Origin: Escherichia coli
Lineage (GTDB): Bacteria; Pseudomonadota; Gammaproteobacteria; Enterobacterales; Enterobacteriaceae
Assembly: GCF_044324785.1 (NCBI RefSeq)
Contig: NZ_CP172127.1
DNA: 64,000 nt
Strand: one strand, 5' to 3'
Position 1 is the stretch's first letter; the number at the start of each line of letters is the position of its first letter. A program made the translations under genes and the position numbers. The notes beneath the pieces were generated by a model. It saw only the letters and a program-made list of their open reading frames with translations, had not been told where the DNA came from and searched no databases. Shown here piece by piece: positions 2,928 through 64,000 of this stretch.

Positions 2928-3797
2928 TTTTGATGCCAGATCGAAGTTGCGCCGACTAAATCGTCCGGTATTAACCAGTTGCGCAACTTCATCCCATAAC
3001 ACATACAACCAACGCCGCCAGATGAATGACTCCGCCACTGGCGCGCGTTGCAGGTAACTCCAGAGCAAATCTTCCGCCAGAGAATTATCCATTAGTCGGA
3101 ACAGTTCGTATTCTCGCGGTGCCCAAAGCATTAGTCCCGGCCCGACCATCGCCAGTAACTGATCGCTGCGCGAATCTTTCAGCATGCTGCGTAAACAGAA
3201 GTTACCGTGAATCAGCACACAATTGTCGTTAAAGCCTTCAAATAATGCCGGGAGACATTCGCGAGTACGAAACAGGATCCGCTTATCCTGCATCGTTAGA
3301 CCGGTGTTATTGAACTGATTGAGCGTGGTCCATAGCACTTCAACATGTTGCCGGTACCATGAGGGCCAGAAATTTTCCTGAGTATTGTCGACCGCGCCGA
3401 CGCAACCGCGACTGTCCTGACGGTGCCAGGCCAGTAAGGCTTCAACGATTTGATCTTTGAGTTGTTCCCAGCGTTCTGGTGTTCGGGCTGGTGCCTCCAC
3501 CGAAACACCACGCATCCGCTCCAGTAGCAGGACATCGGGGCCGGGGTGTTCTTCATGCGTCATCACACCATAAATAGTCGGCATACGGACAGTCCCACTT
3601 CTTGCCAGCATGGTGGTTTTCCATGCCAGTTGTCGGGCTTTTCCGGGCGTACTAAAGCTTCTTGCCATTAACGGCATTGGGTTTCCCTGGCTGTCATACA
3701 AAGCCCACAACGCCGTATCCGCTTTTTCATTGACGCACTCAATACGACTGAGTTTCTCGCCCAGTAAATGGCTTAATTCGGCACGCAGCTGTTCCAT
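2904..3797 (-). CDS. ycbJ: Putative kinase/phosphotransferase YcbJ
   Basis: 297-aa ORF; convergent 24-bp overlap with elyC; synteny. Confidence 0.8.
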   Translation of the reverse strand: MEQLRAELSHLLGEKLSRIECVNEKADTALWALYDSQGNPMPLMARSFSTPGKARQLAWKTTMLARSGTVRMPTIYGVMTHEEHPGPDVLLLERMRGVSVEAPARTPERWEQLKDQIVEALLAWHRQDSRGCVGAVDNTQENFWPSWYRQHVEVLWTTLNQFNNTGLTMQDKRILFRTRECLPALFEGFNDNCVLIHGNFCLRSMLKDSRSDQLLAMVGPGLMLWAPREYELFRLMDNSLAEDLLWSYLQRAPVAESFIWRRWLYVLWDEVAQLVNTGRFSRRNFDLASKSLLPWLA

Positions 3798-3950
3798 TCA
3801 GATTACCCTCATAAAAGCTACTGCTTTCATAATGAGCGCCAATATAAAAGATGTCACCTGAATGAGATCAATTGTTGAAAAGAAAAATTGAGGAAAATCG
3901 TAACGGTACGACACTCCTCCCAAAATTGGCTGGAGTGTCGTGAAGTGAAA

Positions 3951-24467: not shown

Positions 24468-25208
24468 ATGTCAGTTATTGGTCGCATTCACTCCTTTGAA
24501 TCCTGTGGAACCGTAGACGGCCCGGGTATTCGCTTTATCACCTTTTTCCAGGGCTGCCTGATGCGCTGCCTGTATTGTCATAACCGCGACACCTGGGATA
24601 CGCATGGCGGTAAAGAAGTTACCGTTGAAGATTTAATGAAGGAAGTGGTGACCTATCGCCACTTTATGAACGCTTCCGGCGGCGGCGTTACCGCATCCGG
24701 TGGTGAAGCAATCCTGCAAGCCGAGTTCGTTCGCGACTGGTTCCGCGCCTGCAAAAAAGAAGGCATTCATACCTGTCTGGACACTAACGGTTTTGTTCGT
24801 CGTTACGATCCAGTAATTGATGAACTTCTGGAAGTGACCGACCTGGTAATGCTCGATCTCAAACAGATGAACGACGAAATCCACCAGAATCTGGTAGGCG
24901 TTTCCAACCATCGTACACTCGAGTTTGCTAAATATCTGGCGAACAAAAATGTGAAAGTCTGGATACGTTATGTCGTAGTACCTGGCTGGTCTGACGATGA
25001 CGATTCAGCTCATCGCCTCGGTGAATTTACTCGCGATATGGGTAACGTCGAAAAAATCGAGCTCCTCCCCTACCATGAGTTAGGCAAACATAAGTGGGTG
25101 GCGATGGGCGAAGAGTACAAACTCGACGGTGTGAAACCACCGAAAAAAGAAACCATGGAGCGAGTGAAAGGGATTCTTGAGCAATATGGTCATAAAGTGA
25201 TGTTCTAA
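24468..25208 (+). CDS. pflA: Pyruvate formate-lyase activating enzyme (radical SAM)
   Basis: ORF 24441..25208; start at [20 protein letters not shown]; CxxxCxxC motif CLYCHNRD. Confidence 0.95.
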
Positions 25209-46949: not shown

Positions 46950-47119
46950 AATGGCTCACTCAAGCTTGCTCACGATTGATTCCAGTAACAAACCGTATTG
47001 TGTAATTATTTCTATAGCAGGTCGCTATATAGGCTTGTATACATCGAATAATTTGAAAATCAAAGAGATAGGTAGATTTTCACTCGAAAGTAGTATTACG
47101 TGTAAGTGAGGAGTAATTA

Positions 47120-47133
47120 TTGTTCGGTATCAA
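47120..47133 (-). promoter_or_regulatory. FNR site upstream of dmsA (TTGATACCGAACAA on the minus strand)
   Basis: Matches TTGAT-N4-ATCAA with one half-site variant; upstream of the anaerobically induced dms operon. Confidence 0.6.
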
Positions 47134-47140
47134 AGGGAGA

Positions 47141-47170
47141 CAAAAAAAGCGCCCGCAGGCGCTTTTTAGA
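47141..47170 (-). terminator. Rho-independent terminator downstream of serS
   Basis: AAAGCGCCTGCGGGCGCTTTTTTT on the minus strand. Confidence 0.75.
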
Positions 47171-47187
47171 TTCAGAAAAATTGGGTA

Positions 47188-50666: not shown

Positions 50667-51421
<755 letters not shown>

Positions 51422-51525
51422 ATCAGCATACTTGTCCTTAGCCTTCTGCAGTGACAGCTGGTAGTACAGCGTGCTTCTGGCCAGCCCTGCAGCCTTTAAC
51501 AGGTCAGACTGGCAGTGTCCGCACC

Positions 51526-52047
51526 TCAGGCTCCGGATGACTTTCGTTTTTTCTCCAGCTCCTGGCGCTTTTTTTCCAGGAGATGCTCCTGCATGGCTTT
51601 CAGATATGCATTTTCTGCGCGAAGATAACGCAGCTCATTCTTCATCTCTTCCGGCGTCATGTTTGCCTCGTTTTCATGGGTATCATCAGAACGGGTCATG
51701 CTTTTCTCCTTCCTGCGCCTGATAAAGGCCTCATTACCAGATTTGCGGTAGCCTTTTATCCAGTTTTTAACCGTGTTGTGGCTGGGAATGTTAAACCGGG
51801 CAGCTACCCGGGGTAGAGACTCAGAATGCCCGAGAGCATAAAGAACCACGCAAAGTTTATCTTCAGGAGAATAGCTACGCTTGTGTCTGCAATCCAGTGC
51901 CCGAGGACCGTGAAGAAGAAAAAGATTAATCCAGTGTGAGAGGCTGGTGTGAGAAAGTTGAAAGAGTTTTGCCGTAGAAATGATGCCTGCATGACCAGCC
52001 AGGTAATGATTTACAGCGGCAAGTTTTACTTCAAATGAATGTTTCAT
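51526..52047 (-). CDS. insJ: IS150 OrfA (InsJ; helix-turn-helix)
   Basis: MKHSFEVKLAAVNHYLAGHAGIISTAKLFQLSHTSLSHWINLF... Confidence 0.85.
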   Translation of the reverse strand: MKHSFEVKLAAVNHYLAGHAGIISTAKLFQLSHTSLSHWINLFLLHGPRALDCRHKRSYSPEDKLCVVLYALGHSESLPRVAARFNIPSHNTVKNWIKGYRKSGNEAFIRRRKEKSMTRSDDTHENEANMTPEEMKNELRYLRAENAYLKAMQEHLLEKKRQELEKKRKSSGA

Positions 52048-52130
52048 AAACTGCACCTTCAGATGTCAGATTATGTCCAACATTTGGGGTGCAGTTCATA
52101 CCGCGCCTTATCCGGCCTACGATGCATTAA

Positions 52131-63014: not shown

Positions 63015-63236
<222 letters not shown>

Positions 63237-63489: not shown

Positions 63490-63577
63490 GGTGAGGTGTC
63501 CGAGTGGCTGAAGGAGCACGCCTGGAAAGTGTGTATACGGCAACGTATCGGGGGTTCGAATCCCCCCCTCACCGCCA
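63490..63577 (+). tRNA. serW: tRNA-Ser (anticodon GGA), 88 nt with long variable arm
   Basis: GGTGAGGTGTCCGAGTGGCTGAAGGAGCACGCCTGGAAAGTGTG...GGTTCGAATCCCCCCCTCACCGCCA; acceptor stem GGTGAGG/CCTCACC; T-loop GGTTCGAATCC. Confidence 0.95.
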
Positions 63578-63583
63578 GATTAT

Positions 63584-63620
63584 AAGCGCATGTTATTGTT
63601 TAACATGCGCTTTTTTATTT
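63584..63620 (+). terminator. Rho-independent terminator after tRNA-Ser
   Basis: AAGCGCATGTTA...TAACATGCGCTT hairpin followed by TTTTTTATTT. Confidence 0.8.
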
Positions 63621-63726
63621 ATCCTTCCGGACAGTATGCCATCGGGTATGCCATCTGAAACCGGTTTATATGCCCCGCGATCATATCTTATCGGACAATT
63701 TCCGATCTTTGAGCATACTGGCAAAG

Positions 63727-64000
63727 CTATACTGCCAGCATGTCAGGATAGTGTTTTGCGATAATATCATTCAGTCTGTCAACCAGTTCTGGTTTCCTGA
63801 ACGTGATGTGTGCGGAGCCCTTCTTAAAGTATCTGATGCTGAACATCTCATCTTCATAGTCCTCTTTACCCTGAACAGACTGGATGTGGTCATCCAGACG
63901 AAGGGTGATGTTTTCCCGGTTGTCGGGGATCGGTTTGCCGCTGAACAGGTGCAGCATTCTTTCCAGGTCGGCAAGTCGATCTACCTGGTGCCCGGTGATA
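63727..64000 (-). CDS. 3' end of an unidentified gene entering from beyond the window; not the clpA expected at this position from my recollection of K-12
   Basis: Open frame to the window edge ending ...SIRYFKKGSAHITFRKPELVDRLNDIIAKHYPDMLAV; frame and extent are uncertain because two overlapping minus-strand frames are open here. Confidence 0.35.
   Translation of the reverse strand, partial: ITGHQVDRLADLERMLHLFSGKPIPDNRENITLRLDDHIQSVQGKEDYEDEMFSIRYFKKGSAHITFRKPELVDRLNDIIAKHYPDMLAV

Follow-up and report, generated by a model that had tools for sequence, protein, structure and literature searches.

The closest described relatives of the locus analysed here are OI-43 of E. coli EDL933 (serX twin OI-48; SpLE1 of Sakai; the tellurite-resistance/adherence island) and the SRL PAI of Shigella. 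Bielaszewska et al. found that OI-43 of EDL933 occupies serW; one end of the island adjoins clpA and carries a P4-family integrase, and the other adjoins serW/infA (PMC3064760). A perfect 14-bp repeat, TGGCGGTGAGGGGG, was present on each side of the island and did not differ from that of the Shigella SRL PAI, and the OI-43 integrase was 99% identical in nucleotide sequence to the SRL PAI integrase (PMC3064760). Complete excision of OI-43 was measured in about 2 in 1000 cells (PMC3064760), and excision has been shown both for OI-43/48 (PMC3064760) and for the SRL PAI (PMC7545054). The latter has been reviewed as occurring at serX and serW (PMC7545054).

A further comparison can be made with CP4-6, CP4-44 and CP4-57 of K-12, which have in common with the islands considered here a set of genes forming an end module (GTPase, Ag43, DUF932, antirestriction, JAB/RadC-like, DUF987, YeeU/CbtA toxin-antitoxin, DUF5983, DUF957 and DUF4942). 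The K-12 elements differ in having other tRNA or tmRNA targets and other integrases, and they are small and decayed.

The window, that is the whole 64,000-nucleotide stretch of E. coli DNA that was analysed, ends shortly after serW, and its last part, 63578-64000, is very probably the tRNA-proximal end of an island of the SRL-PAI / OI-43 / OI-48 (SpLE1) family integrated in that gene, to judge from sequence comparison. The junction is a member of an already known island family and teaches nothing new on integration biology.

The junction at the 3' end of serW

The gene order at the end of the window is cydD, cydC, aat and infA (63018-63236), followed by a tRNA-Ser gene that is identical to K-12 serW at 88/88 positions. 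In K-12 MG1655 infA and serW are followed by a 344-bp spacer and then by clpA on the opposite strand. The features at and beyond the tRNA in the window are as follows.

63490-63577, plus strand: serW, tRNA-Ser with anticodon GGA (ARAGORN; Rfam tRNA, 53.8 bits)
63564-63577, plus strand: 14-bp att core CCCCCTCACCGCCA, formed by the final 14 bases of serW; this 14-mer also stands at the far island end in relatives
63578-64000, no strand: visible part of the probable island, its tRNA-proximal end and the counterpart of the 'downstream junction' of OI-43
63584-63622 (to 63612 in a narrower delimitation), plus strand: intrinsic terminator from the island, with a 12-bp stem, a 5-nt loop and a T tract
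63634-63642 and 63646-63654, plus strand: two direct GTATGCCAT repeats, 12 bp apart, candidate integrase arm-type sites
63727-64000, minus strand: 3' end of the terminal island gene (stop codon 63727-63729 plus 91 codons), encoding a DUF4942 protein and running off the window

The window therefore contains the tRNA-proximal junction only, made up of the 14-bp core, the island terminator, the GTATGCCAT pair and the end of the terminal gene. K-12 and the window are identical through the tRNA, with the first mismatch at 63578, and a 25-kb alignment to the island-free strain IAI39 stops at query base 24577, which is window position 63577. Foreign DNA starts exactly at the 3' end of serW, and the tRNA gene, which is the integration target, is undamaged and remains intact after integration. 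The native serW terminator has been replaced at this junction by the island terminator, which was invariant in 5/5 aligned junctions; in relatives the native one remains at the distal junction. The original prediction had given the K-12 order with clpA after serW and had reported some 420 bp of non-syntenic sequence past the tRNA-Ser, and it was right on both counts, the actual length being 423 bp. It had also seen no repeat of the tRNA 3' end in the window, and a search confirmed that this sequence occurs there only once, even with 2 mismatches allowed.

The frequency of the junction was determined in a collection of 5426 complete E. coli genomes, using as query the 1101-bp stretch from infA through serW to DUF4942 and counting genomes in which this was covered at 80% or more. 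The junction was found in 277/5426 genomes. A query for the empty site, in which upstream sequence specific to serW was joined to the tRNA and to the native terminator beyond it, was matched in about 5138 of the same 5426 genomes. An earlier count of 4963 empty sites was rejected as confounded, the flank of serX resembling that of serW. Expressed as shares, ~95% of the genomes have an empty site as against ~5% with the junction seen in the window.

The spacer between serW and clpA is itself variable, and both the RtT-like 180-bp units and the orphan CRISPR array that it contains differ between strains. Native strain variation or rearrangement of this intergenic region, involving no mobile element, could be proposed on these grounds as the origin of the novel flank, and such an origin is barely credible. 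The break coincides exactly with the 3' end of the tRNA, and the new sequence is a DUF4942 gene of a type that is also found at serX and at as many as 7 sites in a single genome. Because some 95% of complete E. coli genomes keep the native flank after serW, the break at 63577/63578 is not chance variation.

The terminal gene and the islands of related genomes

The minus-strand ORF is separated from the tRNA-Ser gene by a spacer of 149 bp. Its 90 visible residues matched positions 104-190/190 of the Pfam family DUF4942 (PF13708) with E = 5e-28 and with a score of 98.5 bits, which passes the gathering cut-off of 25, and the full-length relative scored 232.9 bits to the same family. All of the visible residues (90/90) are identical to residues 191-280 of WP_001274547.1, a protein of 280 aa. 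A search of NCBIfam with the DUF4942 protein gave no match. On these matches the ORF is identified as the DUF4942 gene that terminates CP4-like island end modules and not as clpA or any other core gene adjacent to serW.

The islands of three related genomes, Ec-FL1-1X, SMS-3-5 and O157 644-PT8, were read end to end and that of EDL933 was examined via its two junctions. Their sizes and cargo are as follows.

Ec-FL1-1X (100% identical to the window over the 1101 bp from infA to DUF4942): island of about 77 kb; cargo includes type I restriction-modification, many IS elements, aspartate racemase, C4-dicarboxylate transporter and aspartase genes and a dgo cluster
SMS-3-5: island of about 41.5 kb; cargo of polysaccharide-synthesis genes
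O157 644-PT8: island of about 59 kb; cargo of Zorya, type I restriction-modification with DarTG, and a two-partner-secretion haemagglutinin
EDL933 (OI-43): island of about 88 kb, estimated from the positions of the two junctions

The end module that follows serW in Ec-FL1-1X lies on the minus strand and consists of DUF4942, DUF957, DUF5983, the CbtA toxin and the YeeU antitoxin, and then DUF987, a JAB/RadC-like protein, an antirestriction protein, DUF932, Ag43 and a GTPase. At the far end, near clpA, are DUF3987, an AlpA-family gene and a minus-strand gene for a 402-aa tyrosine integrase, with 874 bp between integrase and clpA; the AlpA-family gene is ~1.8 kb from the integrase. Both ends are the same in SMS-3-5 and 644-PT8, and the cargo is different. 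EDL933 has the same end module at serW, partly disrupted by an IS element, and its integrase-to-clpA junction is 95.1% identical to the SMS-3-5 counterpart. The integrase in these islands is at the tRNA-distal end, where it adjoins the partial tRNA copy. In CP4-6 of K-12, which is at thrW, a toxin-antitoxin module likewise adjoins the tRNA, with the integrase at the opposite end, so a tRNA-distal integrase is not unusual.

The edge of an integrated island at tRNA-Ser, which the original prediction had offered as a hint, is supported by these genomes, since those that share the junction carry an island with an integrase at the clpA end. The checks that it had suggested were carried out on them and on the ORF. 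Extension downstream led into an island of about 41.5 to 88 kb in 4/4 junction-sharing genomes examined; a tyrosine integrase was found beside clpA in 4/4 and the 14-bp repeat of the serW 3' end at 3/3 of the far ends read. The observation that the ORF with its stop at 63727 is unlike ClpA held when the 90 residues were compared with K-12 ClpA by BLASTP, which gave no alignment at E <= 100, and profile and BLAST searches returned the island-end DUF4942 gene.

Comparison of the window with the serW junction of OI-43 in EDL933 gave a gap-free, collinear alignment with about 95% identity in the island part. The serW site, the orientation and the core are shared, OI-43 having its integrase beside clpA and its last gene beside serW/infA, and the terminator and the GTATGCCAT pair are identical to those of the window. 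Unlike OI-43, however, the window end is closer (100%) to the non-Ter islands of Ec-FL1-1X, SMS-3-5 and O157 644-PT8, whose cargo is different. Many genomes have island ends, at serW and at serX, that match the 423-bp stretch with 100% identity, and the identical copy beside the paralogous tRNA gene serX in strain CFSAN061769 is consistent with the dual serX/serW specificity of the SRL PAI. That island, compared here by its published description, has the same 14-bp direct repeats, with serX as its target and serW as a suspected alternative. It shares with the Ec-FL1-1X island the aspartate racemase and C4-dicarboxylate transporter genes and differs in its SRL resistance locus and fec genes, which were not seen in the relatives examined.

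The 644-PT8 island at serW was found to hold a type I Zorya system (L006 42829 to L007 793 in the extracted loci) and a type I restriction-modification system with embedded DarT/DarG (L006 19968-28602). It is clear from this island that serW islands can carry phage-defence systems.

The gene content near the integrase bears on whether the element is of phage origin. The integrase is P4-type with an arm-binding domain, and its neighbours include AlpA-family and DUF3987 genes of the kind typically present in P4-like satellites, as might be expected of a prophage or a phage satellite (e.g. P4-like) at serW rather than a non-phage island. Set against this, no annotated capsid, tail, terminase, packaging or lysis genes are present in the three related islands read end to end, no integrase in 50,697 phage records shares more than about 40% identity with that of the islands, and the one gene visible in the window belongs to a CP4-like island end module. 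A prophage or satellite is accordingly a most improbable source.

A greater claim to attention, although still unlikely, has the suggestion that the window shows the edge of a decayed remnant, in which the tRNA-proximal module has been kept and the integrase end lost by IS-mediated internal deletion, leaving an element that is fixed and cannot excise. The junction of integrase, core and clpA was found in 230 genomes, EDL933 among them, compared with the 277 that have the serW junction, and a minority of the junction-bearing islands may thus be truncated or have a divergent or decayed far end. Related islands are full of IS elements, and for OI-43/48 both internal deletion by IS elements and loss of the junction on the integrase side have been documented (PMC3064760). 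However, should the 230 genomes all belong to the 277, up to about 83% of junction-bearing genomes retain the integrase end. The visible end is moreover 100% identical to the end of intact islands, and there is no sign of decay in the window. An island with both of its ends is the reading followed below.

Integrase, att core and candidate arm-type sites

The integrase was 400-402 aa long in the three relatives read, with the domains Arm-DNA-bind_3, Phage_int_M and Phage_integrase; a search of NCBIfam gave only a sub-threshold match to a generic integrase domain. Just beyond its 5' end in Ec-FL1-1X, SMS-3-5 and 644-PT8 is CCCCCTCACCGCCA, followed by the native serW terminator and the clpA-side spacer. 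In the extracted loci the distal 14-mer is at position 29252 of L002 (Ec-FL1-1X), 42070 of L005 and 9742 of L007 (644-PT8). The direct repeat published for OI-43/48 and the SRL PAI is the reverse complement of this core, and strand exchange must fall inside the 14 bp at 63564-63577.

The two copies of GTATGCCAT beyond the island terminator are the only ones in the 64-kb window. In three island variants the pair recurs unchanged, spaced and oriented as in the window, at 139 and 127 bp ahead of the distal core, where it lies 22-42 bp upstream of the integrase start codon, and just one further copy was found across the other loci scanned. The window-side pair is conserved in the more divergent EDL933 junction, though neighbouring bases have changed. 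Given their position, their conservation among related sequences and the Arm-DNA-bind_3 domain of the integrase, each of the two pairs probably consists of arm-type sites to which the integrase N-terminal domain binds. It is a more tentative proposition, and on balance a doubtful one, that they represent arm-type sites of the SRL-type integrase not yet described, and that the distal pair, being only 22-42 bp from the start codon of int, could mediate self-repression of the integrase. The repeats may already be described in the SRL attP literature.

Integration of the island can be envisaged as follows. A tyrosine integrase of the P4 type, with its gene at the opposite island end, would recombine the 14-bp core of attP with the identical last 14 bp of serW, and this identity would explain why the tRNA gene stays intact, exchange within the core regenerating the tRNA from island sequence at the junction seen in the window. 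The island-borne terminator, the GTATGCCAT pair and the last gene (DUF4942) of the CP4-like end module would then follow serW, and the displaced native flank with its 14-bp copy of the tRNA end would be expected tens of kb further on, just past the integrase and beside clpA. Excision would proceed by recombination of the two 14-bp repeats, aided by the AlpA-family factor encoded near the integrase. This protein is likely to be a directionality factor. The SRL PAI has such a factor, Rox.

Copies of the tRNA-Ser 3' end are not confined to the island ends. Units of 180 bp resembling RtT were found after serW in some strains and as three tandem copies after serX in K-12, and each of them contains the 14-bp core and is closed by copies of the tRNA-Ser 3' end (AATCCCCCCCTCACCGCCA) and of the terminator. 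Their positions in the extracted loci are as follows.

L004 30372-30508: RtT-like unit in IAI39
L002 29261-29444: RtT-like unit in Ec-FL1-1X
L008 about 520-1090: RtT-like units in the serX flank of K-12

A second and longer copy of the tRNA 3' end in Ec-FL1-1X (AATCCCCCCCTCACCGtCA), ~180 bp past the 14-bp repeat, was considered as the scar of an earlier integration. This was rejected in favour of a native RtT-like unit, since the same 180-bp unit is present in the island-free IAI39, where it is annotated as RtT (Rfam, 45.1 bits). The RtT copies were also considered as secondary attB sites, and a chimeric query joining an RtT unit to the island end was covered at 80% or more in 0/5426 genomes. 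As no genome joins the two, integration has always been seen at the true tRNA copy, and recognition of the target, judged by this distribution, evidently depends on parts of the tRNA gene outside the shared core.

The spacer between serW and clpA also contains an orphan array of type I-F-like CRISPR repeats (Rfam CRISPR-DR4), located in the extracted loci as follows.

L002 29546-29753: orphan array in Ec-FL1-1X, with four repeats and one spacer duplicated
L004 30613-30700: orphan array in IAI39
L003 about 3745-3835, minus strand: orphan array in K-12

A 152-aa 'hypothetical protein' in RefSeq (L002 29390-29848) spans the Ec-FL1-1X array and has no Pfam match, and for these reasons the gene call is probably spurious.

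The source genome and its island

The core genes in the last 25 kb of the window (39001-64000) reached a best identity of 98.4-99.2% among the 5426 complete E. coli genomes, the closest being IAI39, N3, Ec-FL1-1X and SMS-3-5. With identities no higher than this, the lineage of the source strain is not represented exactly in the collection. Since no complete genome of the same strain is among them, we infer from the relatives that the far end of the island in the source genome is like theirs.

Two other features of the window were observed. An IS3-family element lies at 50699-52056 between lolA and ftsK, with minus-strand ORFs at 50699-51421 and 51526-52056; its position matches that of IS1397 annotated in IAI39. 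It is absent from most other genomes, which leaves roughly 7% of the 25-kb query uncovered in them. The sRNA STnc130 (Rfam, 140 bits) lies at 47040-47174 on the plus strand, between dmsA and serS as in IAI39.

The source genome would be among the roughly 5% of E. coli in which serW is occupied by an island of the SRL/OI-43 type. This family carries strain-specific cargo, which in published members is tellurite resistance, urease, Iha or antibiotic resistance and in the relatives described here is phage defence, restriction-modification, adhesins or polysaccharide genes. As relatives carry Zorya, DarTG or polysaccharide loci, it is conceivable, if rather speculative, that the unseen part of the island could carry new cargo. 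Because the cargo of family islands is strain-specific, the sequence downstream of the window in the full assembly is worth examining.
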